32,000 nt of DNA, taken from NCBI RefSeq assembly GCF_009831105.1, contig NZ_WUUQ01000004.1:30001-62000 (forward strand), in the 5' to 3' direction. Origin of the DNA: Copranaerobaculum intestinale (GTDB lineage Bacteria; Bacillota_I; Bacilli_A; Erysipelotrichales; Erysipelotrichaceae). The notes beneath the pieces are model-generated. The model saw only the letters and a program-made list of their open reading frames with translations. It did no database searches and was not told the origin of the DNA. Below are positions 11,026-29,556 of the stretch, piece by piece; positions within the stretch are counted from its first letter, which is position 1, and every line of letters begins with the position of its first letter. The translations under genes and the position numbers were made by a program.

Positions 11026-12598
11026 ACGTTTCTCAACCCTGAAAATTCTAGTTGGATTGTTTTTATGTGTCAGCGTGCTCTTTCCTCTGATTTTATTGAT
11101 TACGCATATTCAGCCAGAGGACTTTGCCAAGGTTGCCTCATCCGCTCAGTTTTGGCCGATGATCGGCAATTCGCTGCTTGCGACAACGATTTCCATGTTA
11201 ATATCGGTCACGCTTGCATTGGGGCTGGCGTGGTGTGTGAACCGCAGCAGAATCCGTTATAAATCTGTATTCAGCGTATTGTTTACCTTGCCAATGCTGA
11301 TTCCCAGCATTTCGCATGGAATGGGTTTGGTTTTGCTATTTGGTGACAATGGGATCTTGACGAATCTATTAGGAATCAATATTCATCTGTATGGATTAGT
11401 GGGGATTGTCATTGGATCGGTGCTGTACAGCTTTCCCGTTGCCTTTTTAATGCTGACTGATATTTTTCGATATGAAGATTATACGGTATATGAAGCGGCT
11501 CAGGTGTTAGGTCTCAGCAAATGGCAGCAATTTGTTACCATTACTCTGCCTAATTTAAAAGCACCGCTCATTTCGATTATTTTTGCGACATTTACCTTAA
11601 TCTTCACGGATTACGGAGTTCCGCTGATTGTCGGCGGCAAGATGATGACAATTCCCGTCTATATGTACCGGGAAGTCATTGGACTGCTCGATTTTTCAAA
11701 GGGAGCTATTCTCGGTCTTCTGTTGCTGATTCCTGCCGTGATTGCCTTTGTGATTGATTTAAGGAGTGAAGATAACGGAAATGTCAGCACGGTTACCAAG
11801 CCTTATCAGATTGGACCCAATAAGCGTAGGGATGGTTTGGCATATTTGCTGTGCATCGGAACCGTTGTGCTTGTTTCGCTGCCCCTGATAGCCTTTGCTT
11901 ATCTGAGCTTTGTTAGGCAGTATCCAATTGATATGAGTCTATCTCTGCACAACATTAAAAAAGCATTTACCCTGGGAGTTGATATGTATTTGGTAAATTC
12001 CCTGGCCATCGCTTTGGCAACCTCAGTTTTAGGTACTGCTGTATCCTATTTTACCGCTTTTCTTACCGCTAGATCACATCGTACCTTTTCTAATATGACG
12101 CTGCATTTGATTTCAATGGTGTCACTCGCAGTACCGGGAATTGTACTTGGTCTATCTTATGTTTTATTCTTTAAGGGTACCTTCATATATGGAACTATTA
12201 TGATTTTGATTCTTGTTAATATTATACATTTTTTTGCATCTCCTTATCTTTTGGCGTATAATTCATTATGCAAATTCAATGAAAATCTGGAGGATGTATC
12301 AACGACCCTGGGTATCAGCCGAATCAGAATGCTTTTGGATGTGTATCTGCCATGTACCCAAGCAACCATTGTAGAAATGTTCAGTTATTTCTTTGTCAAC
12401 TGCATGGTGACAATTTCGGCGGTATCATTCCTTGCCAATTTCAAAAATATGCCGTTAGCCTTGCTGATCCCGCAGTTTGATTCTCAATCGCTGATTGAGG
12501 CAACAGCCTTTATCTCAATTTTGATCTTGCTCGTAAACGGTTTATTAAAAATATCGGTATTCTTTATCAAGCGACAGCTGCAGAAACAGGAGGCTTAA
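11015..12598 (+). CDS. ABC transporter permease, fused double-domain (ThiP/FbpB-like)
   Basis: 527 aa with about 12 hydrophobic segments and two EAA-like loops (YEAAQVLGLSKWQQF and LEDVSTTLGISRIRML). Its start overlaps the ATPase gene. Confidence 0.85.
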   Translation: MKSKRFSTLKILVGLFLCVSVLFPLILLITHIQPEDFAKVASSAQFWPMIGNSLLATTISMLISVTLALGLAWCVNRSRIRYKSVFSVLFTLPMLIPSISHGMGLVLLFGDNGILTNLLGINIHLYGLVGIVIGSVLYSFPVAFLMLTDIFRYEDYTVYEAAQVLGLSKWQQFVTITLPNLKAPLISIIFATFTLIFTDYGVPLIVGGKMMTIPVYMYREVIGLLDFSKGAILGLLLLIPAVIAFVIDLRSEDNGNVSTVTKPYQIGPNKRRDGLAYLLCIGTVVLVSLPLIAFAYLSFVRQYPIDMSLSLHNIKKAFTLGVDMYLVNSLAIALATSVLGTAVSYFTAFLTARSHRTFSNMTLHLISMVSLAVPGIVLGLSYVLFFKGTFIYGTIMILILVNIIHFFASPYLLAYNSLCKFNENLEDVSTTLGISRIRMLLDVYLPCTQATIVEMFSYFFVNCMVTISAVSFLANFKNMPLALLIPQFDSQSLIEATAFISILILLVNGLLKISVFFIKRQLQKQEA

Positions 12599-14927: not shown

Positions 14928-15124
14928 TTATATGAAACTATTTTTTTTATGACTTGCATTCCAACATGTTGGTAATGGGCTTGATGTAAGATGTTATCAC
15001 CAAGCGAGGTTGTCCAGATCAAGACATTAAACGGATCGATATCCAATCAGGAACGTGACCTGTAAAACGGTAGAAATTCATCATAAGACATGTCAAAAAC
15101 GATGAAAGAGTTGGAGGGTATGTA

Positions 15125-15514
15125 ATGATTACGCTACAAGAAATCAAACTGTGGATACAAAGTTATTTGGATAATGTATATGTGAGCATTGGGGAGGTAA
15201 CTGAGGGAAGTGATCGTCAGGCAGCAATCCGGACAGTAAAGGGAGCGATTGCCCCAGCGTCAATTGGGAAAAGCAGTTCTTATTGTAACCTGAGCATTGC
15301 TGTACAGTATGCTCAGACAGGTGAAGATGATGCCGAAAACGTTGCTTGGCAGATTTATGATCTTCTGAATCAGGCTTCCAGTATCGGTGCACATGCGATC
15401 AATCATATCCAAATGGCATATGAATATCCGCTGTGGATAAGAAAAACAAGTGAGGGTGCAACTGTATTTGAGGCAGCGGCATTAATCAATTATCAAAATG
15501 AAGAAGGAGAATGA
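15125..15514 (+). CDS. putative tail terminator / tail completion protein
   Basis: A 129-aa protein encoded immediately upstream of, and overlapping, the major tail protein gene, which is the position held by lambda gpU / SPP1 gp17 analogues. The call rests on position and size only. Confidence 0.4.
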   Translation: MITLQEIKLWIQSYLDNVYVSIGEVTEGSDRQAAIRTVKGAIAPASIGKSSSYCNLSIAVQYAQTGEDDAENVAWQIYDLLNQASSIGAHAINHIQMAYEYPLWIRKTSEGATVFEAAALINYQNEEGE

Positions 15515-15516
15515 TT

Positions 15517-15960
15517 ATGAACGGAGTATTTCCTGTATACAACATGACTTTTAAAATTGGTTCTAAAGGGCTGACATCAGCTGAGGCGGATATGGTCAGT
15601 GTAAAGGATATGGAATCCTTTTCGATAGCAATGGAAAATGGAACAGAAAACTGGACGCCATTAGACGGATCCGGCTGGGCACGTTCTTTAATGACGGCTA
15701 AGAAAATGACAATTTCATTGAAAGGAAAACGCTGCATTGGTGATGCTGGAAATGATTATGTAGCTGCGGCCGCCTATAAAGATGCGGCTGACTGTGCAAC
15801 TAAAGTTATTGTTGATTTTCCGGATGGGGCCACATTGGCATTTGACTGTGTTTTAGATGTAAAAACGATCGGCGGAGACAGTACTAATATTACGCCGTTA
15901 GAATTTGACATGATTGCCAATGGAAGACCGGTATACACGCCGGCGGCTGAAAAAGCGTAA
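15517..15960 (+). CDS. major tail (tube) protein, phi13/TP901-1-like
   Basis: 147 aa, sited before the tail chaperone pair. Its composition is typical of small siphovirus tube proteins (..ISLKGKR..GDAG..FPDG..FD..V...GG). GGAGA at 15506-15510 favours ATG 15517 over 15511. Confidence 0.6.
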   Translation: MNGVFPVYNMTFKIGSKGLTSAEADMVSVKDMESFSIAMENGTENWTPLDGSGWARSLMTAKKMTISLKGKRCIGDAGNDYVAAAAYKDAADCATKVIVDFPDGATLAFDCVLDVKTIGGDSTNITPLEFDMIANGRPVYTPAAEKA

Positions 15961-15973
15961 GGATCAAATAAAG

Positions 15974-16336
15974 ATGGCACGCAAATATGATCTTGTCGAA
16001 CGTTTAAAGACAGCTAATGAAAGACCCTTCTTAGTCCTGGATGAAGAACATGTATATACCATTAACACCAGTAAAAATAACGTTATAGCTATGATGGCAA
16101 TGATGGATGAATATGAACGGAATAGCGAAGGGAATCCCAATCACAGCCAGCTGGAAATGATGGACAAGATGATTACAATGGCTCTGGGTAAAGCAGGTGC
16201 GGAGTATATTGCCAGCAGAGAAGACTGGACGTTTGATGCACTTCAGGATGTTGTCAAATCAATTTCTGCTGCAATTGCCAATATCAGTATTGAAGAAGTA
16301 GAAAAGCGCAGCAACCAAGCAGGCAAAAAAAAATAG
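15974..16336 (+). CDS. tail assembly chaperone (G-like, short product)
   Basis: An acidic 120-aa protein between the tube protein and the tape measure. It ends GKKK* on a 9-A run. The ORF-track start 15914 overlaps the tube gene; ATG 15974 is the plausible start. Confidence 0.65.
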   Translation: MARKYDLVERLKTANERPFLVLDEEHVYTINTSKNNVIAMMAMMDEYERNSEGNPNHSQLEMMDKMITMALGKAGAEYIASREDWTFDALQDVVKSISAAIANISIEEVEKRSNQAGKKK

Positions 16337-16674
16337 CCGAGGACTGGTACGATCTGTTTGATGATTGGGATTTAATTGAGGCTTCTTTTGCAATGCAATA
16401 TCCGGGAAAGAACCTCTATGATGAATCTATGGACTGGGTACAGTTTTCAGCGCTGCTCGCCGGCATTATGCCGGAAACTCCATTGGGTCAGATTGTGAGT
16501 ATCCGAAGTGAAGAAGATCCCCGCGTATTGAAAAGCTTCACAGCAGAACAGCATCAGATCCGAAATAATTGGAGAGAAAAGAAACGGCAGGAACAGCTGG
16601 ACAAACTCACTTCAACCGATATGGAAAAACAGATCGTTGATCTGCAGAATATGATGGCGCATGCTTTCCGATAG
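15974..16674 (+). CDS. tail assembly chaperone GT-like fusion made by a -1 programmed frameshift
   Basis: The -1 frame is open from 16294 through 16674 and reads ...KKIAEDWYDLFDDWDLIEASFAMQYPGKNLYDE... (Gp15-like). The annotated ORF 16393..16674 has no RBS of its own. Confidence 0.6.
16325..16333 (+). promoter_or_regulatory. slippery site (A AAA AAA within a run of nine A) for the G/GT -1 frameshift
   Basis: The zero frame reads ggc aaa aaa aaa tag. The -1 frame reads caa aaa aaa ata gcc and continues open. Confidence 0.6.
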
Positions 16675-16686
16675 CTCGGTATCATC

Positions 16687-16711
16687 AAAAGGCACCGAAG
16701 GGTGCCTTTTT
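16687..16711 (+). terminator. intrinsic-terminator-like hairpin inside the tail operon, just upstream of the tape measure gene
   Basis: aaaaGGCACC-gaag-GGTGCCttttt, 13 nt after the GT stop and 21 nt before ATG 16732. Confidence 0.55.
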
Positions 16712-16731
16712 GCGTAAAGGAGGTTACATAT

Positions 16732-18588
16732 ATGGCAGAAACAATTAGGGTGCAGCTGCAACCGGATATAGATACACTCAGTGCACAACTGAGAAACAGT
16801 ATATTGCAGGCTTTTAATTCGCTTAACAGCAGTTTGAGCCAAACCGGCGTAGTTATGATCACAACGCTCGACTCGTTTAAGAATCGTGCAATATCAGCAT
16901 TAAAAGCGATGGCTAAAATTATTAGCAGTATTCAAATGCCGCAGTTTTCACCATCAGGAACTAGTAGTTCCACCACTGCTGGAGGCAGTATGGAAGGAGG
17001 AAATGGCCCGCCAAAATTAGATTCCCTGATAACATCCTTCAAATCACTGAGAAGTGCTTTTAACGATTTTAAGAATGGCTTCAAAGCTTTTGATGAATTA
17101 AAAACTAAATTACTGGAGTTGCCAGGAAATATTGATTTCCTTACTAGCAAGATCAATTCTATACCGATTTCCTTTGAAACTCTGAAATCGACATTCGGCG
17201 GAATATCCGGGAAGTTCTCTGACTTAAAAGGTTCACTAAGCAGTTTGAAAGAAGGATTCAGCGGGATTGGTCTCAGTGTATCTTCCTTTACATCCTCACT
17301 GGTGGGATCGCTGAAGGGTCTGTTTGAAGTAGTCAAGGCAAATCCGTTAGGAGCTTTATTGACAGTGCTGCAGTTATTGATTCCGGTTTTTATTGATCTT
17401 TACAATAATAATGAAGGATTCCGTAATCTGATTGACAGTATTATCGGGACAATCGCAGATACGGTTGTGCCGATTATCGAAACAGTATCATCCTTTCTCC
17501 AGGATTTCTGGGATAACTGTCTTGCAGTTCTCATTGATGTATTAATGAATCTATGGGAAACGGTTTTGCTGCCATTGGGAATCTGGCTGGGAGAAGTGCT
17601 CATGGGAGCATTGAATATTGTATCTGGCATCCTTATGGATCTGTTCAATAACATTTTAGTTCCGTTTGCAAATTTTTTGTCCGAAGTATTTACGACAGTG
17701 ATTAAAACGGTTATGGATGTTTGGTCAAACTGGCAACCAGCCATTCAAATGATTTGGGAATTACTGCAGGCAATCTGGAACAATGTACTGCAGCCAATTG
17801 CATCATGGCTAATGGATGTTCTGTGCAGCGCGTTTCACATGGTTGAAAATGTTGTCAGTACAGTGATTGATGTGATTATTAATGTATTCACGACCTTCTT
17901 TGATGTCGTATCTGGTGTTTGGGATGCATTGATGGAAATCATTTCAGGTGTGATCAATTTTCTAAGTGATGTATTTATGGCCGCTTGGAATACTGTATTC
18001 TCAGCAGTTGGAACAGTCATTGGCGGAATGGGGAAAACTGTAAGTGATGTCTTTGAATCACTGAAAAAGATATTTAACGGTATTATCGATTTCATCACCG
18101 GCGTATTCAGCAGTGACTGGGGAAAAGCCTGGGATGGCATCAGGAGTATTTTTTCTGGTATCTTTGACGGAGCTGCTGCGATCCTAAAGGGGCCGATCAA
18201 TATTGTCATCGGTATGATCAACAGTGCGATCAAAGCCCTGAATAAGATTTCAATAGATATTCCTGACTGGCTAGGTGGTGGTCATATCGGATTTGATATA
18301 CCAAGAATCAAGCCTTTGGCAACAGGTGGTATCATTGATCAACCAACTTTGGCAATCGTAGGTGAAGCAGGTCGTGAAGCTGTCATGCCGTTGGAACATA
18401 ACACGGGTTGGATTACACAGCTTGCTTCTGATCTGAATGTCAGAATGGGTAGCCATAACAATGATCGAATGGAAAAACTACTGAGTCAACTTATCTTGGA
18501 AGTACGCGGTCTTGATTTGAATATTGACGGTAAAAAGGCCGGTAAACTGATTTCAAGTGCTCGAAAAGAACTGTCCATGATACGATAG
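16732..18588 (+). CDS. tail tape measure protein
   Basis: 618 aa in the position after the G/GT pair. The centre is long, helical and Trp/Phe-rich and repetitive (..NLWETVLLPLGIWL.., ..IWNNVLQPIASWL..). The C-terminal motif GGIIDQPTLAIVGEAGREAVMPLE is typical of TP901-family TMPs. RBS aaggagg precedes ATG 16732. Confidence 0.8.
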   Translation: MAETIRVQLQPDIDTLSAQLRNSILQAFNSLNSSLSQTGVVMITTLDSFKNRAISALKAMAKIISSIQMPQFSPSGTSSSTTAGGSMEGGNGPPKLDSLITSFKSLRSAFNDFKNGFKAFDELKTKLLELPGNIDFLTSKINSIPISFETLKSTFGGISGKFSDLKGSLSSLKEGFSGIGLSVSSFTSSLVGSLKGLFEVVKANPLGALLTVLQLLIPVFIDLYNNNEGFRNLIDSIIGTIADTVVPIIETVSSFLQDFWDNCLAVLIDVLMNLWETVLLPLGIWLGEVLMGALNIVSGILMDLFNNILVPFANFLSEVFTTVIKTVMDVWSNWQPAIQMIWELLQAIWNNVLQPIASWLMDVLCSAFHMVENVVSTVIDVIINVFTTFFDVVSGVWDALMEIISGVINFLSDVFMAAWNTVFSAVGTVIGGMGKTVSDVFESLKKIFNGIIDFITGVFSSDWGKAWDGIRSIFSGIFDGAAAILKGPINIVIGMINSAIKALNKISIDIPDWLGGGHIGFDIPRIKPLATGGIIDQPTLAIVGEAGREAVMPLEHNTGWITQLASDLNVRMGSHNNDRMEKLLSQLILEVRGLDLNIDGKKAGKLISSARKELSMIR

Positions 18589-18598
18589 GAGGATATCT

Positions 18599-18964
18599 AT
18601 GAAATTAACATATACACTTAAAATAAATAATAAAGTTATAAAGAATATCACGAAGTATTCAGCCATATTGAATGAACTTACCGGTAATGAACAGCGAAAT
18701 GCGTGCGGTGGTCTCATTCGTTACCGCATAGCCCGCATTCCATCACTTTCAGTGGAGACTGGAATTCTGGAACCCGAAGAAATGAAAGAACTGCTGCAGT
18801 TATTAGCACTGCCGAAAGTAATGATCGAATGGTATGATCCTGAATCTGGAACATATCGTTTTGGTGAATTTTATGCGGGCGATCATGAGCCGGAGATATA
18901 CAGCATGGATCCCCTGCGTTATGCACCCCTGAAAATTGATTTTCAGGCGCTTGGAGGTATTTGA
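18599..18964 (+). CDS. small distal-tail (Dit-position) protein
   Basis: 121 aa with RBS aggagga, sited between the TMP and a Tal-like gene. It is much shorter than classical Dit proteins, so the call is positional only. Confidence 0.35.
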   Translation: MKLTYTLKINNKVIKNITKYSAILNELTGNEQRNACGGLIRYRIARIPSLSVETGILEPEEMKELLQLLALPKVMIEWYDPESGTYRFGEFYAGDHEPEIYSMDPLRYAPLKIDFQALGGI

Positions 18965-18966
18965 AT

Positions 18967-20973
18967 ATGCAGATTATGAGTGAAGCATTTCAGCGAGCAA
19001 TTAGTGCGGATACTCTGCAAACCAGAGCCTATTTGGATTTTGAAGATTTTCGGGTCCAAGACGACGGTGCGCTAACCAGTATTGTGATTCATGATGAATG
19101 CTATGATGGGGAGACAGATACAATTTTCGGAACCTTTATTGGAAGGTATGGAGAAGCAGATATTATTAGTCAGCAGAATCAGATATTTGAAGACAAAGCA
19201 TTTACTCCCTATTTTGGAGTAGTTTTGGATCAAGGAGAGATAAGTTATCTCTCCTATGGCCGAATGCATGTCTACGAATGCACGCGCAAGGAAGATTCAG
19301 GTAAAACAACCTTAAAATTCATTGATGACAGACTGCTGTTCAATCGTATTTTTAATTTTGAAAATCTTACTTATCCCATGACTTGGCGACAGCTGTTAAA
19401 TGAAGCCGCAAAGCAAGCAGGGATACAGTGCAGCGACCAACAGTTTCTGAACGACCGAGAAGTGATAGCTGAACCAGTATTCTTCGGTTTGGATGCAACC
19501 TGTGCTGATGTTGTGAAAGCGATTGCTCAGGCTAGCGGTACCTTTGCGAAAATTACTAGGACCAATCAGTTAGAGCTACGCAAACCTTTGGAGGAATCAA
19601 CTGTCGTATTGCCGCAAAATTACTATACGTTGGAAACCTTTTCAAACTATGGTCCGATTAATTCTTTAGTGCTAGGGCGTGATCCGCAGAATGATAATGT
19701 ATATTTGAAAGATGATGAAGCAATCAAAAGAGATGGTCTTCATGAATTGCGCATTGTCAACAACCCTTTATTGGATGATCGAAGAGAAGCTTTGATTTCT
19801 TCTTTGTATACTGCGCTGAAAGACTTTTCCTATTCTGGATTAACGTGTATGATGCAAGGATTCCCGGCATTTGACTGCGGTGACGCGATTACGATAAAGA
19901 GCCCTGATGATACTTCTAAACAATCTTATGTGTGGAATCATACGCTGTCATTTCAGGGTTCCTTGCTTTCGCAGATTGATGCTCCAACTTTGACTGCAGC
20001 TGAAATAGCTTATGAAGGGGCAACTTCCATTGAAAAAAAGGTTTTAGAAACTGAACTGAAAGTGGATAAGGTAAAAGGGGAAATTACATCAAAAGTTGAG
20101 GAAACTGAACAAAAAATAGAAATTGTTGACGGAAAGTCAGAAGAATATTTTAAAAGCCTTTCCAACAGTATGTCGCAGACAATGGATTCCTTGAATATAA
20201 CGGTATCACAAGTTGAAAAAAATGAAGAAGAGGTCAAATCTCAGCTGAACAGTTTTACCTTATCCTTAGATGGATTAAAAAATCAATTTTCAATGACTGG
20301 CGGAAATAATATCATTGAAGATTCGATGGGGATTTTTGGTACAACTTTTCAGGAAAACCAATCTATTTGGAAAGGTACTTATGCGGTTGACCATTCGACA
20401 GAAGCTAAAAAGCAGAATATTTATGGCTATGCGCTGATGCTGATGAATGATACTTTGGAGCAGCAAATTCAAGTTCCAAATGGTGTTTATACATTTTCTT
20501 TCGGATATCAGAAGCATAAAGAATTAGCTAAAGTAAGCCTAGTTATCGACAACGAGGTAATACCACTGATGAATGATCGCTATACGAAAGTTGAAAAAAC
20601 AATTCAAGTTACAGCGAATGAAATATCTTTGAAATTTGTGTCTGATATCGATCACTCCTGTACAATTTTTAATCTCATGGGTAATCAGGGAGAAGTAGCT
20701 TCTGTATATTGTTTGGCTCCCGGCGAAAGCTGGAATGATTACGTGAAAATTGGCCGCGGAATTGAAATCGGCTCGGATAGTTCTGATGTAACATTTCAGG
20801 CAAATGCTGATACAATCGGATTTAAAAATAAGAGTGGTGAATATATTGCCGTATTTACGGACACCGGTGCAAATATGAAGGAAATCAGCATTGCAAATCG
20901 GACACAGTTATCGGGAATACTCGTTCAAAATATTAATAATCAAACAGTTTTTAACTATATAGGGGTGAAATAA
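18967..20973 (+). CDS. tail-associated (Tal-like) / minor structural protein with a central coiled coil
   Basis: 668 aa. GGAGGT lies 8 nt before ATG 18967. The N-terminal 340 aa resemble the prophage-tail (endopeptidase-tail) fold region by position. A heptad-rich segment ETELKVDKVKGEITSKVEETEQKIE... matches 'phage minor structural protein' architectures. Confidence 0.55.
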   Translation: MQIMSEAFQRAISADTLQTRAYLDFEDFRVQDDGALTSIVIHDECYDGETDTIFGTFIGRYGEADIISQQNQIFEDKAFTPYFGVVLDQGEISYLSYGRMHVYECTRKEDSGKTTLKFIDDRLLFNRIFNFENLTYPMTWRQLLNEAAKQAGIQCSDQQFLNDREVIAEPVFFGLDATCADVVKAIAQASGTFAKITRTNQLELRKPLEESTVVLPQNYYTLETFSNYGPINSLVLGRDPQNDNVYLKDDEAIKRDGLHELRIVNNPLLDDRREALISSLYTALKDFSYSGLTCMMQGFPAFDCGDAITIKSPDDTSKQSYVWNHTLSFQGSLLSQIDAPTLTAAEIAYEGATSIEKKVLETELKVDKVKGEITSKVEETEQKIEIVDGKSEEYFKSLSNSMSQTMDSLNITVSQVEKNEEEVKSQLNSFTLSLDGLKNQFSMTGGNNIIEDSMGIFGTTFQENQSIWKGTYAVDHSTEAKKQNIYGYALMLMNDTLEQQIQVPNGVYTFSFGYQKHKELAKVSLVIDNEVIPLMNDRYTKVEKTIQVTANEISLKFVSDIDHSCTIFNLMGNQGEVASVYCLAPGESWNDYVKIGRGIEIGSDSSDVTFQANADTIGFKNKSGEYIAVFTDTGANMKEISIANRTQLSGILVQNINNQTVFNYIGVK

Positions 20974-22427
20974 TGGCAATTAGTTATCAGGACTTATACG
21001 TAGGCTCACCATCTGGTGACTGGTATTTACGGTTATATTATGATTCGATATCACAGTCGGTAGCAAATAATCAATCAATTCTTAATTTTCATTTAACCCT
21101 CAGGGGAACGAATCCTTATGGATGGGTAGAGTTTGATCGACGGGATGCTTGGATTGGAGGCAATCACTTTAGCATAAATTTCCATCAAGATCCAGTTGAA
21201 CATACCTTAGGTAGTGCTGTCTATACTGTAAATCATGCGGCAAATGGAACAGCTGCATTCCGTGTAGAATTTGGTATTTCCACTTCTTATATGTTGAATG
21301 GTTCCGCAACGATGAATCTTACTCTACCACCAATTCCCCGTGCTTCTGATTTGACATCATTTACAGATTTTAACGTTGAGGATATATTGAAAATCAATGT
21401 TACTAAAAAATACGGCGGTTTTAGAGACGATCTGCAAATTTATTGTGGGGACACGCTTATCAAAACCATCAGTAATTATCAAAATAATACTGTGATACAA
21501 TTTACGGCAACAGAGAAGCAATTGGTTTTTAATTTGATGAAATCAGTAAACAGCACTGCCTTCACCGGTACTGTTACCACATACAATGGAACAACGAAAA
21601 TCGGAAGCTCATCCAGATCAGCAATTGGTACTATTTATAATGCAGCCCCGCTTATCAGTGGATTTACCTGGAAGGCTCTAAATCACTTGGATCTCTGTAG
21701 TGATCAGACAATTATAAAAAATCATACAAAGATAGGAGTAATGCTTACTGCAGCAATTCCCCAAAAGGGGGCGATTCTTCATCACTATCAGATAACCTGC
21801 GGAAGTAAATCCGTATCCTGTACAGCAATCGACAAGGAAGTGCAGTTGGAAAATGTAGATGACTCTTTCATTCGTGTATATGCTGTAGATAGTCGAAGTA
21901 ATGCAACTGAAATTTCATCTGCAGCCATATCTTTTTTAAATTATCAAAAGCCCTATATACAGGAAATAACGATGATTCGCAGTGAAGGCGGCATTGGTCA
22001 TGATGTAACGCTTCATATTAAAGGTAGTATGTGGGCCGATAATTTCGGACTTGTGAATAATCAGTTAACGGCTGCGTACTTCTACAAGGAGCGAAATTCG
22101 AATACATGGATACAGGGAACAACGGCTTTAACGATTGATCAAAAAGATGAATTTACCTGTACCATGAAAATAAAAGGAGATTTAGGTGCAGATGGCTTCA
22201 GTAATAAAAATTTTGATATTCGCATGATCGTTACTGATAAGCTTGATTCTTTTGTAAAAGAAGAAATATTGTCACAGGGAAATCCACATTTGTCAATCCA
22301 CGAAGATGGTGTAGCAATCGGTGGATTTTATGATGAACAAGTGGGAGGAAGTCTGCAGATTTATTCTTCTGCTTTACGTCGTATGATCAGCTCGGACTGG
22401 TTGATTTTTGATGATCCGCAGGCTTGA
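20973..22427 (+). CDS. tail fibre / receptor-binding candidate (DUF859-like N-terminus)
   Basis: 484 aa; the start overlaps the upstream stop (TAATG). The N-terminal pattern (LRLYYDSISQSVANNQSILNFHLTL..) resembles the siphovirus DUF859 family from memory, and the rest is beta-rich. Confidence 0.45.
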   Translation: MAISYQDLYVGSPSGDWYLRLYYDSISQSVANNQSILNFHLTLRGTNPYGWVEFDRRDAWIGGNHFSINFHQDPVEHTLGSAVYTVNHAANGTAAFRVEFGISTSYMLNGSATMNLTLPPIPRASDLTSFTDFNVEDILKINVTKKYGGFRDDLQIYCGDTLIKTISNYQNNTVIQFTATEKQLVFNLMKSVNSTAFTGTVTTYNGTTKIGSSSRSAIGTIYNAAPLISGFTWKALNHLDLCSDQTIIKNHTKIGVMLTAAIPQKGAILHHYQITCGSKSVSCTAIDKEVQLENVDDSFIRVYAVDSRSNATEISSAAISFLNYQKPYIQEITMIRSEGGIGHDVTLHIKGSMWADNFGLVNNQLTAAYFYKERNSNTWIQGTTALTIDQKDEFTCTMKIKGDLGADGFSNKNFDIRMIVTDKLDSFVKEEILSQGNPHLSIHEDGVAIGGFYDEQVGGSLQIYSSALRRMISSDWLIFDDPQA

Positions 22428-22514
22428 TTGTGGAACATAATAGAGTGTATTCACTATCTTCTGCTAAAAGATATGTGAAGCAGTGGATCATGAATAATAA
22501 TGGAGGTATAGACC

Positions 22515-22973
22515 ATGACAATGAAATGTTTAAGCGGAATCCATCCTTGTCCTTATCGTATTGGTGATATTATTTTAACCGATATTGCTGAAAATCCTGC
22601 GGTTATGTATAAGGGAACAAAATGGGAAATGACGTGCGTTGGAAGAGTTCCGGTAGGTATGATGAGTACTGATTCAGACTTTAAGACAATAAATTCCATT
22701 GGCGGATCGAAAACGCAGAATTTAACAGTAAAGAATTTACCTAATGTGACTGGTCGATTAGAATTTCATAATGCGGGGGTTGCTACAAATCTATTTGGAG
22801 CTAGCGGGAGTTTCTCACCTGGTAATCGATGCAGTCGATATGGAAATCTTGCAGGAACTAACGCAGGCGCAATTTCAATTGGTATTGTAAATTTCAGTCT
22901 TGGCGGTGAAAATCTGGCTCATAATAATATGCAGCCTTATCAGGTCAAGTATTTTTGGATTAGAAAATCGTGA
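22515..22973 (+). CDS. phage tail-collar-like tip protein, paralog 1
   Basis: CPYRIGDI...GTKWE...GRVPVG...IGGSKTQNLTVKNLP...HNNMQPYQVKYFWIRK matches the tail-collar pattern (GGS.. / HNN.QPY). RBS ggagg. Confidence 0.6.
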   Translation: MTMKCLSGIHPCPYRIGDIILTDIAENPAVMYKGTKWEMTCVGRVPVGMMSTDSDFKTINSIGGSKTQNLTVKNLPNVTGRLEFHNAGVATNLFGASGSFSPGNRCSRYGNLAGTNAGAISIGIVNFSLGGENLAHNNMQPYQVKYFWIRKS

Positions 22974-23232
22974 TAATGCAAGGATATTTTACTTTCAGTG
23001 TGATATAGAAAATAATGGTTTCATTTAAAATAGTTTTGAAGAAGTTGTTAACTTTTTAATCATATTAAAATAGGAATAATAAAGTAGAGATTCACCATAT
23101 ATGAAAGTTTTACATTCTTGCTAGATTTTAGTGAAATATAAGTATTTTTAATTTTATAGTGCTGCTAGGAACTTTTGAATAAGTTAAATTATTAAGAATT
23201 CAGAAGATTTACTTAAAAAGGAGGATTTCTAT

Positions 23233-23637
23233 ATGATGTATATGATAAATGGAAAGGAAGCGTGCATGTATGCGATTGGTGATTTTGCTTCCTTCCCTGA
23301 AGGAATTGATCCAAATCAGAAATTTTCGGGTACTCACTGGCAGAGAATAAAGGGTCGTATGATCGTCGGAGTAGATGAGAATCAAGATGAATTCAATAGT
23401 GTTAATAAAATCGGAGGAAGCAAGGAGCTCCAGGAACATTCCCATGGTACACCGATTCCTAATTCGGGTGGTCCATATAGTTTCAAGGGATATAGCATAA
23501 ACAGTAATTATGGCGGCTCAGAAAATACAACTTTTAAGACTTGGTGGGCTTTATGGATGACAAGTGTATCTGGAAAGGGTGATAGTGGTAATCTGCCTCC
23601 GTACATCACAAAATTTCTCTGGGAACGGGTTGCTTAA
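23233..23637 (+). CDS. phage tail-collar-like tip protein, paralog 2
   Basis: CMYAIGDF...GTHWQRIKGRMIVG...IGGSKELQEHSHG...LPPYITKFLWERV has the same scaffold as paralog 1 with a divergent middle. Strong RBS aaggagga. Confidence 0.55.
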   Translation: MMYMINGKEACMYAIGDFASFPEGIDPNQKFSGTHWQRIKGRMIVGVDENQDEFNSVNKIGGSKELQEHSHGTPIPNSGGPYSFKGYSINSNYGGSENTTFKTWWALWMTSVSGKGDSGNLPPYITKFLWERVA

Positions 23638-23665
23638 ATGATTGCGGAGCAATCAATAAGATGAT

Positions 23666-23947
23666 ATGGAAGTCATAACTATTACAATCATAAACAGGGA
23701 GTTTGCATGTAAATATGCTATTGATGATGTGGTATCCATTACCAAAGATGATAATCCTAATGATAATAATTACAACACCTCCTGGATTCACCGTATGATT
23801 GTTTGCGGAGATGAAAAACAAGAAGTATTTGATCGGCTAGAAAAAATTGGAGGGAAAAGTATTGACTTTACAAATTTCAAAGAGGGAGATCGATATGTAC
23901 CTTATGTGGTTATTACTGATATAAAGAATCAAATGTTTGGACTATAA
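23666..23947 (+). CDS. short tail-collar-like paralog 3
   Basis: ACKYAIDDV...TSWIHRMIVCG...IGGKSIDF...YVPYVV keeps the N-terminal scaffold but lacks the central segment. The RBS is weak. Confidence 0.4.
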   Translation: MEVITITIINREFACKYAIDDVVSITKDDNPNDNNYNTSWIHRMIVCGDEKQEVFDRLEKIGGKSIDFTNFKEGDRYVPYVVITDIKNQMFGL

Positions 23948-23959
23948 GGGGGTGACAAG

Positions 23960-24151
23960 ATGAAAGTAAAATTATTGAAAATGATGAATGTGAAGAGCAT
24001 TGTGACATTGGTGTTGACACTTGTCTTTGCCTATCTTTCTATCATACAGGTAGTGCAGGAACAACAGTTCATGACAGTATTTACTGTGGTCATTTCATTT
24101 TATTATGGAACACAAAGTATAAAGCGAGCGAATGCATCAGATGAACAGTGA
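23960..24151 (+). CDS. putative holin (two-TM, 63 aa)
   Basis: Two hydrophobic helices (IVTLVLTLVFAYLSII; FMTVFTVVISFYYG), a charged C-terminus KRANASDEQ, a strong RBS aagggggtga, and the last position of the tail operon. Confidence 0.5.
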   Translation: MKVKLLKMMNVKSIVTLVLTLVFAYLSIIQVVQEQQFMTVFTVVISFYYGTQSIKRANASDEQ

Positions 24152-24189: not shown

Positions 24190-24378
24190 CTACTTAAAAC
24201 CGTCGTCAAGTGCAATGAAGCTATTGTACTTATTATCGATCAAATACTTGAGCCTGTAAGTAGAAACGTATAATAGTATTATCAAAAGCATGGCAATGGT
24301 TGAGAATAATGTGAAATCAGTATAACACAGATTTAATGAATTCATAGAAAAGGTGGAGTCATTCCGCCTTTTTACCAT
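24190..24378 (-). CDS. doubtful small membrane ORF (62 aa)
   Basis: It has one clear TM segment (FTLFSTIAMLLIILLYVSTY). However, the RBS is poor and its first 9 codons are the complement of the plus-strand terminator hairpin. Confidence 0.2.
   Translation of the reverse strand: MVKRRNDSTFSMNSLNLCYTDFTLFSTIAMLLIILLYVSTYRLKYLIDNKYNSFIALDDGFK
24349..24373 (+). terminator. intrinsic terminator candidate ending the tail/holin transcription unit
   Basis: aaaggtgga-gtcat-tccgccttt (9 bp including one G-U) running into five T. Confidence 0.5.
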
Positions 24379-24480
24379 CCTATATCATATGTTAAGAATT
24401 TACGAAAATTCCTGCAATCGTTCATCGGTATTCGTGCTTTTTTTTAAACAGGTTTCGTTATGCTGATATTGGTGATAACA

Positions 24481-24708
24481 ATGAAACTGACAGAATTAAA
24501 ACCAAGGGAAAAAGCGCGAATCACACATCTTGATCTCAGTGAGGAATATCAGCGCCGGCTGCTTCATTTAGGAGTATACAAGGGGTCGGTAATACGTATG
24601 GAACGCCTTGCACCCTTAGGAGATCCATTGGAGTATTTTGTCTGCGGCAATCTCTTGATTCTACGCCGAAGTGATGCGCAGAATATTGAGATTACGCGGG
24701 AGGGGTAA
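24481..24708 (+). CDS. feoA: ferrous iron transport protein A
   Basis: 75 aa with a FeoA/SH3-like pattern (LTELKPREKARITHLDL...LLHLGVYKGSVIRMERLAPLGDPLE). ATG 24481 is preferred over ORF-track ATG 24460 because ggtga lies 5 nt upstream of it. Confidence 0.85.
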   Translation: MKLTELKPREKARITHLDLSEEYQRRLLHLGVYKGSVIRMERLAPLGDPLEYFVCGNLLILRRSDAQNIEITREG

Positions 24709-24711
24709 GAT

Positions 24712-26820
24712 ATGAAGGAATATACGATTGCATTTGTTGGGAATCCCAATGTCGGTAAGAGTGCCTGGATTAATGCGTTGTCTCATGCGGATTTCAAGAT
24801 CGGCAACTGGCCTGGAGTAACAATAGAACGTAAGGAAGCCACAGTGACATGGCAGGATGATTCCTATCACTTGATTGATCTTCCCGGTACATATAGTCTG
24901 GATGACATCACAAATGAAGAAATTATCACATCACAGTTTTTGAAGCAGGAAAAAGTGGATTGTATCGTTAATGTTGTAGATGCAACTAATCTTCAGCGAA
25001 ATCTCTATCTGACGCTCCTTTTGCGGGAACTGCAGGTACCGATGATTCTTTTACTGAATTTTATGGATGAAGCTGATCGCTATCACATTCATATTGAAAT
25101 ACAGAAGCTGTCGCGGCGGCTGCAGATTCCGGTGATTGCGGCCAGTGCTTATGATGCTTCTAAATATGAACATGTTCAACAGGAGATTATCGATCAAAGC
25201 GGAAAAACGGTTTTCTATTATCCGCTTTTACCAGATGTTGATTATGAAAAATATGTAGCACTCTTTCATTACGTGGAACAACATATACCGCATTTTTTAA
25301 AGCTGGAGGATAAACAGATTTGTGACATGATCACGAAAATACGTGAGGGTGATCGTGAAACCGCCCTGCAGTTTCGTACATGGGGAATTGATGAAGAGAA
25401 GCTCAAGCAGAAGCTGGAACCATTCGGTGAAGCAGTAATGAAAGAAAAACGTTATGAGGTAATTCATTCTCTGATGAAATATGTAAAAGAAAATGAAGAC
25501 CTGCGATTGGAAAAAACGCGGCGTATAGATAAACTGCTTCTGCATCGATTTTGGGGGTTGCCGCTGTTCTTTCTTTTATTTTCGTTGCTTTTGCTGTTTG
25601 TTTTTCATGGCAGTGCCCCATTGAATGACTTTATCGATTATACCGTTCATGAATATATCAGCAAGTATGTCTATTTACTGCTGAGCTGGGCACCGAAAGT
25701 GCTTCGAGAACTGGTTGTCAACGGTATCATCGCAGGCGTAGGCGGAGTTCTGGTATTTATTCCGCTGATGGCTTTCTTGTACCTCATGCTTGCGATCTTG
25801 GAGGAAAGCGGATATATGTCGCGGATTGCCTTTTTACTGGACCGGGCGATGCGTAATTTTCACCTCAGCGGTAAAAGCTTTGTTTCTTTACTAATTGGTT
25901 TTGGCTGTAACGTTCCGGCGGTTTATGCAACTCGTACGCTGGATAATGAACGGCAGAAAAAGCTGACCGCAGTTTTGATACCTTTTATGTCATGCGGTGC
26001 GAGGCTGCCGGTCTATGTGCTGTTTGCGGCCGCGTTTTTCAAACAGAAAGCGGGGTTGATGATTGTTACGGTATATGCGATCGGGATTCTTCTGGCCCTG
26101 CTTTTAGCAATGATTTTCAGTCGGTTTCAAACCTTTCAGGATCATGATCTATTTGTCCTGGAACTGCCGCCTTACCGCGTTCCAAAGTTAAAAACAGTTT
26201 TTCATAAGGTCAAGTTGGAGGTAAAGGGTTATATAAAAAAGGCCACGAATGTAGTCTTATGGGCGATGATTTTAATTTGGGTGATTTCATATTTTCCAAA
26301 AGGAAACATCGAAAGCAGTTATATTGCTTCGTTTGGGCGCAGTGCGAGCGTACTATATCAGCCGCTTGGATTTGGCACTCGATGGGAAACGGTGGCATCT
26401 TTACCAGGCAGTGTGATTGCTAAAGAGACCGTGGTTGGATTCTTGGATCAAGTGCTTTTGAAAACTAAAAGTGATGTAACCTATGAGTGGAATTTATGGG
26501 AAGATACTCGTACTCTGGCGGTAAAGCTGGGCAGCGCTGTGAAGGACAGTGCGGTCAATATGGTTACGATTGGCGGTTATGAAAAGCAAAGTGACTCGCT
26601 GGTCCACGCGATATCCGAACTGTGGACAGACCGCCTAGCGAAACTGCGTGCTTTCTGCTTTATGTTATATGTTTTGCTGAGTATCCCATGCGTCATGACG
26701 CTGAATGCAATCTATCGTGAATACGGACGAAAACTACTGCTGATTTCGATATCAACTATGCTGATCGTTCCTTATCTGACAGCCTTTTTCATCTTTCAAA
26801 TTTTTTCTCTTATCCTGTAA
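24712..26820 (+). CDS. feoB: ferrous iron transporter B
   Basis: N-terminal G-domain with G1 GNPNVGKS, G3 DLPGTYSL and G4 NFMD, followed by a polytopic membrane domain with gate motifs. 702 aa. Confidence 0.95.
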   Translation: MKEYTIAFVGNPNVGKSAWINALSHADFKIGNWPGVTIERKEATVTWQDDSYHLIDLPGTYSLDDITNEEIITSQFLKQEKVDCIVNVVDATNLQRNLYLTLLLRELQVPMILLLNFMDEADRYHIHIEIQKLSRRLQIPVIAASAYDASKYEHVQQEIIDQSGKTVFYYPLLPDVDYEKYVALFHYVEQHIPHFLKLEDKQICDMITKIREGDRETALQFRTWGIDEEKLKQKLEPFGEAVMKEKRYEVIHSLMKYVKENEDLRLEKTRRIDKLLLHRFWGLPLFFLLFSLLLLFVFHGSAPLNDFIDYTVHEYISKYVYLLLSWAPKVLRELVVNGIIAGVGGVLVFIPLMAFLYLMLAILEESGYMSRIAFLLDRAMRNFHLSGKSFVSLLIGFGCNVPAVYATRTLDNERQKKLTAVLIPFMSCGARLPVYVLFAAAFFKQKAGLMIVTVYAIGILLALLLAMIFSRFQTFQDHDLFVLELPPYRVPKLKTVFHKVKLEVKGYIKKATNVVLWAMILIWVISYFPKGNIESSYIASFGRSASVLYQPLGFGTRWETVASLPGSVIAKETVVGFLDQVLLKTKSDVTYEWNLWEDTRTLAVKLGSAVKDSAVNMVTIGGYEKQSDSLVHAISELWTDRLAKLRAFCFMLYVLLSIPCVMTLNAIYREYGRKLLLISISTMLIVPYLTAFFIFQIFSLIL

Positions 26821-27106
26821 TCACATCAGAGAATTGCTCCATTATTTCTTTTACAAGCTCCTTAGCTTGCTGTTCGCATTGATCCTGATGATCAGGGTCA
26901 CAACTGAAATGATTTTCCATAATGTGTATTACTTCATGAAAAAAGGTTTTTTGCTGCTGATAGATTGTAAAACGAGAATTGATGATGACATGATAATAAG
27001 CACCGTCGTAATAGCAAAAACCGCGTATCCGGGTGCTGAGCTGATCATTAAAATGAATCAGAATATCATGTTGTGCACAAAAATCCTCAAATCCTATTTC
27101 ATCCAT
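26810..27106 (-). CDS. ImmA/IrrE-family (M78) metallopeptidase, short form
   Basis: HEVIH zinc motif within FFHEVIHIMENH, preceded by YYHVIINSR. It lies immediately downstream of, and co-oriented with, the XRE repressor. Its 3' end overlaps the feoB 3' end by 11 nt. Confidence 0.7.
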   Translation of the reverse strand: MDEIGFEDFCAQHDILIHFNDQLSTRIRGFCYYDGAYYHVIINSRFTIYQQQKTFFHEVIHIMENHFSCDPDHQDQCEQQAKELVKEIMEQFSDVITG

Positions 27107-27115
27107 ATACTACCT

Positions 27116-27553
27116 CTAATCTATGCCTCGTTCTTTGCGGATTCCGCGGATGATTGTCAGCACCATTTCCAAATCAGATGGTTCCAGATCTTTCGCAGAA
27201 TCAAATAAAAGTGCTAGTGTTTCTTTCTCACAGATGTCCTGATACAAAGAAAGTAATTCTGGTTTATCCGACAGAAAATCAATATTATTTTGATGATCAC
27301 CATATATCTTGGGCATACTCATCTTCTGCTGGATATCCTGCATGAGTTCATCATAGCTGATTTCGTATAAATCAGCGAGTTGTCGAATCGTTGATATTTC
27401 CATGCGGTGCATGCCCATTTCATATCGCTGCACCGTTTTTTTGGTTTTGCCTAAACGTTCGGCAACCTGGGCGAGAGAGTAACCCTTAGCCTTGCGAAGC
27501 TGCCGTAGCCGTTTACCCAAGTGTTCATAAATCTGTTTATCATATGTTGACAT
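27116..27553 (-). CDS. XRE-family (ImmR/cI-like) HTH repressor
   Basis: HTH_3 pattern LGKRLRQLRKAKGYSLAQVAERLGKTKKTVQRYEMG plus a roughly 70-aa C-terminal domain. It is divergent from the late-activator gene. Confidence 0.85.
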   Translation of the reverse strand: MSTYDKQIYEHLGKRLRQLRKAKGYSLAQVAERLGKTKKTVQRYEMGMHRMEISTIRQLADLYEISYDELMQDIQQKMSMPKIYGDHQNNIDFLSDKPELLSLYQDICEKETLALLFDSAKDLEPSDLEMVLTIIRGIRKERGID

Positions 27554-27580
27554 ATTTATCCCTCACATCTTTTCCATTTT

Positions 27581-27609
27581 ATTGTAACATTATGTATGTA
27601 CGTATTCAA
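27581..27609 (-). promoter_or_regulatory. xre/immA promoter candidate (TTGAAT-17-TACAAT, minus strand)
   Basis: The -35 TTGAAT is the complement of 27604-27609 and lies inside the left operator arm. After an exact 17-nt spacer, the -10 TACAAT is the complement of 27581-27586. Confidence 0.55.
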
Positions 27610-27636
27610 GACACAGTTAATAATTGTGTCTTGAAT
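27604..27636. promoter_or_regulatory. operator: perfect 12-bp inverted repeat ATTCAAGACACA-N9-TGTGTCTTGAAT
   Basis: Read directly from the sequence. It sits between the divergent xre and late-activator promoters and overlaps the xre -35. Confidence 0.7.
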
Positions 27637-27639
27637 GGG

Positions 27640-27669
27640 TTGACATATTAGAACTGTCAGGAGTAAGAT
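27640..27669 (+). promoter_or_regulatory. promoter candidate (TTGACA-18-TAAGAT) for the late-activator/lysin operon
   Basis: TTGACA at 27640-27645 lies 3 nt downstream of the operator; TAAGAT is at 27664-27669. Confidence 0.5.
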
Positions 27670-27764
27670 GTGATTGCCAGATAAGATATGGGAAGAAAAT
27701 TCTGCGGGGGATTTTTCTTTCTCGACAATGTGTCTTATTTGGGAAACGCAGGGAGAGATGCAGA

Positions 27765-28139
27765 ATGTTGAATGAACAAATTAAACGGCTTCGCTATCGA
27801 CTATATCTTTATGGATCTTATCAACAAGAATACCAAAAAAAGCAGCGGGAACTACATGAGAAACCTAGTGTTGATCAGGAACAATACTTGCTATATTTAA
27901 GAGAATGCATTATGAATACACATATAGAAGAAGCTCTTATGCTTTTAGATGAACAGGAGCTTTCTTTGATTGAGCAACGCTTTATTCACAATTATACATT
28001 TGAGAAGATGTCAATGATTTATACGATGAAGGAAGGCATTCGCAGAGATAAATCGCAAATTTATGATGATGTAGAAAAAGCTTTGAAGCATCTGTTGACG
28101 ATATTAGCTAAAATAGAACTTCCAACACGTTGGTCTTGA
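27765..28139 (+). CDS. ArpU/RinA-like late transcriptional activator (sigma-70 region-4-like HTH)
   Basis: 124 aa. LDEQELSLIEQRFIHNYTFEKMSMIYTMKEGIRRDKSQIYDDVEKAL resembles a sigma region 4 / ArpU HTH. RBS gggagag precedes ATG 27765. The ORF-track start 27624 would run through the operator and promoter. Confidence 0.5.
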   Translation: MLNEQIKRLRYRLYLYGSYQQEYQKKQRELHEKPSVDQEQYLLYLRECIMNTHIEEALMLLDEQELSLIEQRFIHNYTFEKMSMIYTMKEGIRRDKSQIYDDVEKALKHLLTILAKIELPTRWS

Positions 28140-28183
28140 ATAATGGCTATGATTTGGAAAAAGGAAGGTTAGGTTGTGGAACT

Positions 28184-28540
28184 ATGAAAGAGCAGTTGAA
28201 ACTGATGGGACTGGATGATTCACAAATTCATGGCGTTATGGCCTTGATTACACAGAAAATGATAACTAGGCATCGATTTAATCAAGTGAATGAAAGGCGT
28301 AAGAATGCAGAGCTTCGTGTCGTTTTTCTGAAAGAAAGAATTCAAGAACTGGAACGAGAAGCCGAACGGTACAGTATGCTGAAGCAGGAACTGCATATTT
28401 TGGAGAATGCTGTAAAGGTTCGCAAAGAACAGTCAGAACGAGAGCAGCAAAAGCTTATGTTGAATTTGATGAATCAGTGTATTCAGGATGAAATGTTGAA
28501 ACAAAAAATTAAAACATGCATGTATGAGGAGGACAAATAA
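28184..28540 (+). CDS. coiled-coil protein of unknown function
   Basis: 118 aa. The N-terminus LKLMGLDDSQIHGVMALI is followed by a heptad-rich, E/K/Q-rich helix. Its stop overlaps the endolysin ATG (TAATG). The start is uncertain: TTG 28130 is an alternative. Confidence 0.45.
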   Translation: MKEQLKLMGLDDSQIHGVMALITQKMITRHRFNQVNERRKNAELRVVFLKERIQELEREAERYSMLKQELHILENAVKVRKEQSEREQQKLMLNLMNQCIQDEMLKQKIKTCMYEEDK

Positions 28541-29544: not shown

Positions 29545-29556
29545 GGAAACCCTTTT
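29534..29556 (+). terminator. intrinsic terminator whose loop is the endolysin stop codon
   Basis: GGGTTTCC-taa-GGAAACCC followed by tttt. Confidence 0.7.

Follow-up and report, generated by a model that had tools for sequence, protein, structure and literature searches.

Gene content of the tail locus

The stretch of DNA analysed here, referred to as the window, comprises 32,000 nt of Copranaerobaculum intestinale (positions 30,001 to 62,000 of contig NZ_WUUQ01000004.1) and harbours a cluster of phage tail genes that we discuss as a candidate tailocin, i.e. a phage tail-like bacteriocin. Between positions 15125 and 24151 twelve co-directional open reading frames (ORFs) follow each other with short gaps or overlaps in siphovirus tail order: tail terminator, tail tube, a chaperone pair, tape measure protein (TMP), Dit, Tal, fibre, collar-type tips and a holin-like gene (Table 1). 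This tight packing of twelve tail genes had been described in a first-pass annotation made from the sequence, and the ORF layout was confirmed, including the 242-nt gap that separates the start of gdhA (14882, on the minus strand) from the first tail gene (15125) and the single 259-nt spacer in the tail block (22974-23232). The overlapping stop and start codons TAATG are situated at 20971-20975.

The ORFs of the window were assigned to families by PHROG and Pfam profile scans. The first-pass annotation had proposed such searches as a check, and they returned tail families and no head families. With Pfam no capsid, portal, terminase, connector, integrase or replication genes were found among the larger ORFs of the 32 kb, and none of the ORFs in 15125-24151 or 26810-29544 matched a sheath or contractile-baseplate family, baseplate-J included. 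The earlier claim that the window lacks head, packaging, integration, replication, sheath and baseplate-J genes is in agreement with these scans. The only trace of a head gene in the window is a 136-aa ORF with a sub-threshold scaffold match. According to Pfam the flanking ORFs encode host functions only, namely PTS EIIA, a DHH phosphoesterase, a C69 peptidase, LigD/Ku, NadE, FeoAB, PncA and PncB; an ABC transporter, a LicC-like gene and gdhA are further host genes of the flanks.

Table 1. Positions of the features of the locus in the 32-kb window
Feature	Position	Strand	Basis or remark
Non-coding block of 46 nt	15029-15074	.	Upstream of first tail gene; 100% identical in L178
Tail terminator protein	15125-15514	+	PF12691, 27.3 bits (cut-off 23.8); first structural gene
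Tail tube protein	15511-15960	+	phrog_820, E 9e-37; PF06199
G-like tail assembly chaperone	15974-16336	+	phrog_8300, E 7e-24; 120-aa gene call; ends at slippery run
A9 slippery run	16325-16333	+	Directly before TAG stop; read from the sequence
T part of chaperone	16393-16674	+	phrog_8355, E 5e-31; partial Phage_Gp15 match; frame open from 16324
Terminator-like hairpin and T run	16687-16711	+	Fold energy -19 kcal/mol; between chaperone genes and TMP gene
TMP, 618 aa	16732-18588	+	Many TMP PHROGs, down to E 7e-47; ORF open from 16702
Dit-position protein (DUF6711)	18599-18964	+	PF20458, E 9e-10; phrog_1194; assigned by family and position
Tal/baseplate hub, 670 aa	18961-20973	+	Hub-fold matches of structural model; central coiled coil; C-terminal beta-sandwich
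Fibre or baseplate-peripheral tail protein (DUF859-like)	20973-22427	+	phrog_372, E 4e-52
Collar/Gp10_C tip 1, putative receptor-binding tip	22515-22973	+	PF21939, E 2e-13; own GGAGG ribosome-binding site
Collar/Gp10_C tip 2	23233-23637	+	PF21939, E 3e-10
Internally truncated tip paralogue	23666-23947	+	No family match; central part and C-terminal motif missing in tip alignment
Holin-like small membrane protein	23960-24151	+	phrog_13256, E 6e-17; two hydrophobic segments and charged C-terminus; end of operon
feoA and feoB, host iron transport	24460-26820	+	FeoA, FeoB_N, Gate and FeoB_C Pfam; between the two halves, outside the machine
ImmA/IrrE-type M78 metallopeptidase, putative anti-repressor protease	26810-27106	-	PF06114, E 1e-6; HEVIH motif
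Xre/CI-type repressor	27116-27553	-	HTH_31, HTH_3
Putative operator and early promoter	27604-27669	.	16+16-nt palindrome, then TTGACA-18-TAAGAT
Small putative late activator, 124 aa	27765-28139	+	Sigma-70 region-4-like C-terminus; weak matches
Coiled-coil protein p136, 136 aa	28130-28540	+	PF06810 (GP20 scaffold), 28 bits (cut-off 35), sub-threshold
GH25 endolysin, C-terminal repeats	28540-29544	+	PF01183, E 6e-29; phrog_291, E 2e-46

Structural genes of the tail operon

The order of tail functions proposed in the first-pass annotation held from the terminator to the fibre according to the PHROG and Pfam matches, together with an AlphaFold2 (AF2) model for the Tal hub, whereas the starts of the first chaperone gene and of the TMP gene had to be moved, most likely to 15974 and 16732. 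The terminator is homologous to those of the full prophages L007 and L010. The tube protein is 77% identical to that of the Clostridium innocuum element (see below) and 58% identical to that of Clostridium phage vB_CpeS-CP51; gene callers place its start two codons further downstream.

At the end of the first chaperone gene the sequence reads GGC AAA AAA AAA TAG (16322-16336). The -1 frame is open across the A9 run and codes for DWYDLFDDWDL upstream of the annotated ATG of chaperone T. An identical A9 run is found in the diverged relative L178 and A8G in C. innocuum, and the DWYDLFDDWDL motif is kept in all of them. The G/GT chaperone pair with slippery site that had been postulated earlier was thus substantiated, and as read from the sequence the A9 run appears to be a classical -1 frameshift site that would give a G-T fusion protein of ~230 aa. 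The hairpin that precedes the TMP gene is kept in L178 (~11563-11587), and a hairpin of different sequence occupies the same position in C. innocuum (L001, ~7827-7855). It may serve as an attenuator setting the stoichiometry, i.e. an excess of the tube protein over the TMP and the distal proteins.

The TMP is short for its lineage, and its length is close to the 622 aa of FtbJ, the TMP of the Listeria monocin. The interval from chaperone T to Dit corresponds to ~640 aa-equivalents in the window and to ~600 in C. innocuum (TMP ORFs of 586-639 aa), compared to a median of 1067 aa-equivalents (5-95% range 840-1352) in the head-bearing relatives. The Dit-position protein is 42% identical to its counterpart in L006, a phage contig with head genes.

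The 670-aa protein encoded next is identical to GSF08_09695 ('Clostridiaceae bacterium DONG20-135'). Its AF2 model has a mean predicted local distance difference test score (pLDDT) of 73.6, with residues 1-345 at ~90. This N-terminal part matches the hub fold of T4 gp27, Mu gp44 and MuSo2 (E 1e-14, TMt 0.6-0.66) and also the diffocin hub and the monocin tip chain 9j1k_L (rank 25); the lambda tip complex gave a weak fold-level match (rank 45). The fold of the C-terminal domain matches CBM61 (E 3e-6). According to the model the protein is therefore a Tal/baseplate hub whose C-terminal end probably binds carbohydrate. Homologues of the following fibre gene are situated downstream of Tal in L006, L007, L011 and L015 and, with weak similarity, in C. 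innocuum and Beduini.

Three tips and a holin had been called at the end of the operon. Two of the tips carry PF21939; the third turned out to be a truncated paralogue without family match and is, from the alignment of the tips, probably degenerate. Tip 1 is 39% identical between the window and L178, tip 2 shares 83% identity with the third of the L178 tip genes, and one tip of L178 is absent from the window. The AT-rich 259-nt spacer occupies the place of the second full-length tip gene (131 aa) of L178, and a tblastn search of the spacer found no remnant of that gene. As p484 and tip152 are in the same frame, they could in principle be a single gene interrupted by a nonsense mutation. This possibility was rejected, since the sequence between them contains four stops and an independent GGAGG ribosome-binding site. 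The product of the last gene has two hydrophobic segments and a charged tail, but owing to its PHROG family it can only be termed holin-like.

Upstream of the first tail gene the alignment of the gdhA/terminator intergenic regions revealed a 46-nt block (Table 1) that is fully kept although the synonymous sites of L178 are near saturation. The block occurs as a single copy in the window. From its sequence and position it is a candidate late promoter or activator site, and it could instead serve the divergent gdhA. A putative late-promoter motif common to the window, C. innocuum and Beduini (TTGTCC ... ATAT) was dropped, as TTGTCC is not kept in L178.

A second block beyond feoAB

The first-pass annotation had confined the element to 15125-24151. 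This had to be revised, since regulators, an activator and a lysin were found at 26810-29544, 2.7 kb downstream of the tail block and past feoAB. The second block starts with a protease and a repressor gene on the minus strand, followed by activator, p136 and lysin genes on the plus strand. Between the minus-strand and the plus-strand genes lies an inverted repeat at 27604-27636 (ATTCAAGACACAGTTA / TAATTGTGTCTTGAAT) with 94% complementarity, which is kept in the relative L179. Directly after this palindrome the promoter scan identified TTGACA-18-TAAGAT at 27640-27669.

For the putative activator, TIGR03001 matched with E 0.003; TIGR02937 matched the Beduini homologue with E 7e-5 and the C. innocuum counterpart with E 0.055. 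A sequence search of the PDB with the activator profile gave no informative match. The following gene, p136, may from its sub-threshold scaffold match be a fossil of a deleted head module. Its stop codon overlaps the ATG of the lysin gene, and the order activator, p136, lysin with this TAATG coupling is kept in the relative L180. A strong terminator was predicted after the lysin gene (29534-29552) by the terminator scan.

Headless and head-bearing relatives

The nearest relatives of the window locus belong to the Erysipelotrichaceae, namely C. innocuum, Beduini, Breznakia and the hosts of Solobacterium phages. C. innocuum (L001) has a contiguous headless locus with host genes on both sides, in the order M78 and Xre (both on the minus strand), small activator, terminator, tube, two chaperones, TMP, Dit, Tal, fibre, two small genes and a CHAP lysin; an identical Tal is indexed in 118 blocks of the genome collection. 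The locus of Beduini massiliensis (L003) has this architecture too, at a chromosomal site of its own, and ends with a GH25 lysin. The flanks of L178, L001 and L003 also hold host genes only. No terminator homologue was found in the Beduini element, so that its deletion boundary differs from those of the window and C. innocuum elements. Before its tube gene a 122-aa ORF (L003, 5493-5861) matches a scaffold hidden Markov model (HMM) built from related prophages.

The same tail lineage also includes head-bearing prophages and phage contigs, namely L007 (Clostridiales VE202-01), L010 (a Breznakia metagenome-assembled genome) and L006. In L007 and L010 the terminator and tube genes are preceded by minor capsid, scaffold, major capsid and connector genes. 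We surveyed tube homologues in metagenome and IMG/VR collections using iterated HMMs for head, tail and regulator genes. Of the 170 loci found to encode a related tube protein, 150 have head-module genes upstream. Among the loci for which 4 kb or more of upstream sequence was available, only the window group and the C. innocuum group are headless; Beduini is headless apart from the scaffold-like remnant. As the window and the homologous loci are devoid of capsid, portal and terminase genes, they do not resemble a PBSX-like defective phage or a gene transfer agent.

The affinities of the single genes are mixed. The tube and chaperones of the window are nearest to the C. innocuum elements and its Dit and Tal to the phage L006, and the tube and chaperones of Beduini are nearest to phages (82% to L076). 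Judging from these sequences, domestication took place two or more times, modules were exchanged with phages, or both.

Synteny and selection

The synteny in close relatives was derived from Logan and ENA contigs. The split order of the window is reproduced exactly by L005, an independent metagenome assembly. The host genes of L178 show 89-98% protein identity and a synonymous divergence (dS) of 0.9-1.3 to those of the window. Its neighbourhood corresponds to that of the window, with Ku/ligase, NadE, ABC transporter, LicC-like gene and gdhA and then the gdhA/terminator junction. A comparison with relatives had been suggested in the first-pass annotation; it showed that this junction and the eight core tail genes are kept in L178. 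All eight genes have the same length as in the window, and the ratio of nonsynonymous to synonymous divergence (dN/dS) is 0.018-0.27 (terminator 0.27, tube 0.018, chaperone G 0.06, TMP 0.08, Dit 0.05, Tal 0.059, fibre 0.09); for Tal a value of 0.055 was obtained with a second relative. In the C. innocuum clade the locus is found at one site in eight assemblies, with dN/dS of 0-0.35 for most genes and of up to 0.51 for chaperone T in one pair, and the fibre/holin segment is mosaic. In the C. innocuum group (L001, L008, L018, L022) tblastn alignments of the 140-aa holin-like gene (L008, L018, L022) and of the fibre gene (L008) contain stops, which may represent allelic replacement or pseudogenes.

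A different picture was obtained for the second block in L179 (Logan SRR22839718). Compared to the window (27979-29332), 1.35 kb are deleted in this relative, which has thereby lost p136, the activator C-terminus and the greater part of the lysin; Xre and the truncated activator are left beside pncA.

These data bear on the question whether the locus is an inert cryptic prophage remnant, i.e. leftovers without present function that have not yet decayed. Signs of erosion and rearrangement are indeed seen in the truncated tip paralogue, the scaffold-like fossil, the splitting of the locus by feoAB and the deletion in L179. However, neutral decay over a host dS of ~1 would give frameshifts and stops, and the intact genes of equal length with low dN/dS therefore count against an inert remnant. 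Furthermore, the relatives have kept both the slippery site and the hairpin between the genes, and in other genera homologous headless loci stay at fixed sites and evolve under purifying selection. The core genes are intact, and the partial signs of decay are restricted to the periphery of the locus (truncated tip, L179). A constant core combined with variable receptor-binding genes is what would be expected of a maintained tailocin and not of a decaying prophage. We consider an inert remnant unlikely. The earlier claim that the genes are maintained by selection holds for the core tail genes and is tempered by the split locus and the L179 deletion.

Probable linkage of the two blocks

The two blocks could also be two unrelated remnants, a tail/holin block and a regulator/lysin cassette which are neighbours by chance, with the Xre/ImmA pair being a generic stress switch like CapH/CapP. 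Host genes separate the blocks, no repeats marking rearrangement junctions were found, and Xre matches the CapH and RmrA regulator models. The regulators themselves point in the other direction: M78 (44-51% identity), Xre (39-42% identity) and the activator (E 9e-6 to the 138-aa gene of Beduini) are homologous to genes heading the C. innocuum and Beduini tail operons. In addition, each block lacks exactly what the other supplies, since the first contains a holin-like gene and no lysin and the second a lysin and no holin. No defence effector adjoins the M78/Xre pair, and PADLOC returned generic helix-turn-helix matches for Xre alone and no sign of a defence system. A chance neighbourhood of the blocks thus appears even less probable than an inert remnant. 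Because the homologous loci elsewhere are contiguous, we regard the two blocks as probably functionally linked.

A domesticated tail cluster as candidate tailocin

From the evidence given above we interpret the locus as a domesticated headless siphovirus tail cluster and a candidate F-type (non-contractile) tailocin derived from a CP51-like temperate siphophage of Bacillota, with a probability of about 0.65. That the locus is domesticated and not a decaying prophage follows from the headless relatives, the kept gdhA junction, the equal gene lengths and the low dN/dS. All features of an F-type tailocin for which a genome sequence can be checked were found, namely a complete tail gene set in canonical order, no sheath, no head genes, regulation and lysis genes, and a fixed site under selection, so that this assignment is supported; the regulatory and lysis genes are present but not contiguous with the tail genes. 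We are highly confident in the genomic description (headless, domesticated, selected), and the chance that the window copy makes bactericidal particles appears slightly better than even.

Several points weigh against this interpretation. Particle assembly, killing and the regulatory wiring are deduced from the genes. The locus is split by feoAB, and the tail operon has no adjacent regulator. Outside of gdhA the promoter scan found no sigma-70-type promoter upstream of the tail operon. The activator was assigned from weak matches, and the AF2 model from a four-sequence alignment was unusable (pLDDT 45). phrog_13256 is a family of unknown function, and the holin call is derived from position and hydropathy. 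One tip gene in the first block is truncated, and the regulatory/lysis half is not universally kept, as L179 demonstrates. Finally, the search for head genes was confined to the 32-kb window.

The last point would also leave room for a tail-donor module, i.e. tails that are joined to capsids from elsewhere (a tail-less prophage or a capsid-forming satellite) and serve DNA transfer, and the terminator, which in the monocin (FtbF) caps the head-proximal end of the tail tube (PMC11830787), is kept as the first gene; but the monocin likewise keeps its terminator as first structural gene (PMC11830787), the locus has no head-tail connector or head-completion gene whereas full phages have three to four between capsid gene and terminator, and the TMP is far shorter than in phage relatives and fits a killing device better than a phage-matched DNA conduit, which makes this explanation very improbable.

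Proposed mechanism

If the locus is a domesticated tailocin, it could function as follows. The Xre repressor would bind the 16+16-nt palindrome beside the TTGACA-18-TAAGAT promoter until, upon stress or DNA damage, the ImmA-like M78 protease inactivates it. Derepression would lead to joint expression of the sigma-region-4-like activator and the cytoplasmic GH25 lysin, and the activator would switch on the tail operon in trans via the conserved region upstream of 15125. Terminator, tube, the G and G-T chaperones (the latter by a -1 slip on A9), TMP, Dit, Tal, fibre and tips would then assemble headless tails, for which the 618-aa tape measure predicts a length of roughly 90 nm. The holin encoded at the end of the operon would time lysis, and the lysin would release the particles. 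By analogy with monocins and F-pyocins, these would bind a cell-wall carbohydrate of related strains and kill without DNA delivery.

In a wider sense the Erysipelotrichaceae of the human gut including C. innocuum would possess an F-type tailocin family that has not been described so far and that arose from CP51-like siphophages by two or more domestications. Within the window's genus it would form a split regulon, with ImmA/Xre and a sigma-like activator cotranscribed with the lysin controlling the tail/holin operon in trans across feoAB. We give this extended proposal an even chance. If it is true, such a conserved family of independent origin would show that gut Bacillota have repeatedly come to use bacteriocins of the flexible-tail type as weapons. 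It would also supply a scaffold of natural origin and narrow spectrum for targeting C. innocuum, an emerging pathogen, and its relatives. The paired tailocin and phage relatives allow the study of domestication (head loss, TMP shortening and tip diversification), and the split arrangement is a natural experiment on tailocin regulation in trans.

Other features of the window

The gdhA/tail intergenic region contains the perfect 12-bp palindrome CCAACATGTTGG (14940-14975), which is largely kept in L178 and is probably a regulatory site of gdhA. Further upstream, Ku and an ATP-dependent DNA ligase (LigD-like) form a non-homologous end-joining pair on the minus strand (4914-6637) that is also kept in L178. 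A 62-aa ORF with a hydrophobic segment is situated on the minus strand between the holin-like gene and feoA (24190-24378) and was not called in L005. With Rfam no RNA family was found in the window.

Comparison with known systems

Full-text literature searches returned no paper in which Erysipelotrichaceae or C. innocuum are connected with tailocins or phage tail-like bacteriocins. The Gram-positive F-type tailocins of the searchable literature are those of Listeria (monocin) and, very recently, Enterococcus (efagin). The window locus would therefore be an F-type tailocin of a lineage without a described one, and its split genetic architecture is unusual.

Among the closest known systems are the CP51-like temperate siphoviruses (vB_CpeS-CP51, phiCp-A and Solobacterium phage SMO_1P) together with L007 and L010. 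Their tube proteins are 46-58% identical to that of the window (48% for SMO_1P), and their genes from the terminator through tube, chaperones, TMP and Dit to Tal are arranged as in the window. Unlike the window locus, they have genes for minor capsid, scaffold, major capsid and connectors immediately before the terminator gene, and their TMPs are much longer.

The F-type pyocin of Pseudomonas aeruginosa resembles the locus in being a chromosomal flexible headless tail that has regulators and lysis genes of its own and whose receptor-binding genes vary. It differs in that it is lambda-like, Gram-negative and regulated by PrtN/PrtR, and there is no sequence relationship.

Monocin, with the terminator FtbF as first structural gene, the tube FtbG and the TMP FtbJ (PMC11830787), is likewise Gram-positive, headless and non-contractile. 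The gene order is the same, with regulators, terminator, tube, two chaperones, TMP, Dit, hub, fibres, holin and lysin (PMC11830787). The TMPs are of similar length (622 aa in FtbJ, 618 aa in the window), and the N-terminal fold of Tal is similar to 9j1k_L. When the tube, Tal and fibre proteins were compared by phmmer with all chain sequences of the PDB, those of the monocin included, no phage or monocin match was obtained. The two systems also differ in ancestry, which is TP901-1-like for the monocin and CP51-like for the window locus. Moreover, the monocin locus is contiguous and the window locus split, and the tips of the latter are small collar/Gp10_C proteins.

Efagin of Enterococcus faecalis (ef1276-ef1293) is a chromosomal headless non-contractile tail-like inhibitor that is conserved species-wide and originated independently of the monocin (bioRxiv 10.64898/2025.12.13.693970). 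Going by the description in the preprint, to which our comparison is confined, efagin belongs to another host family, and the window copy differs from it in being split; the C. innocuum relatives, on the other hand, are likewise conserved at one site.

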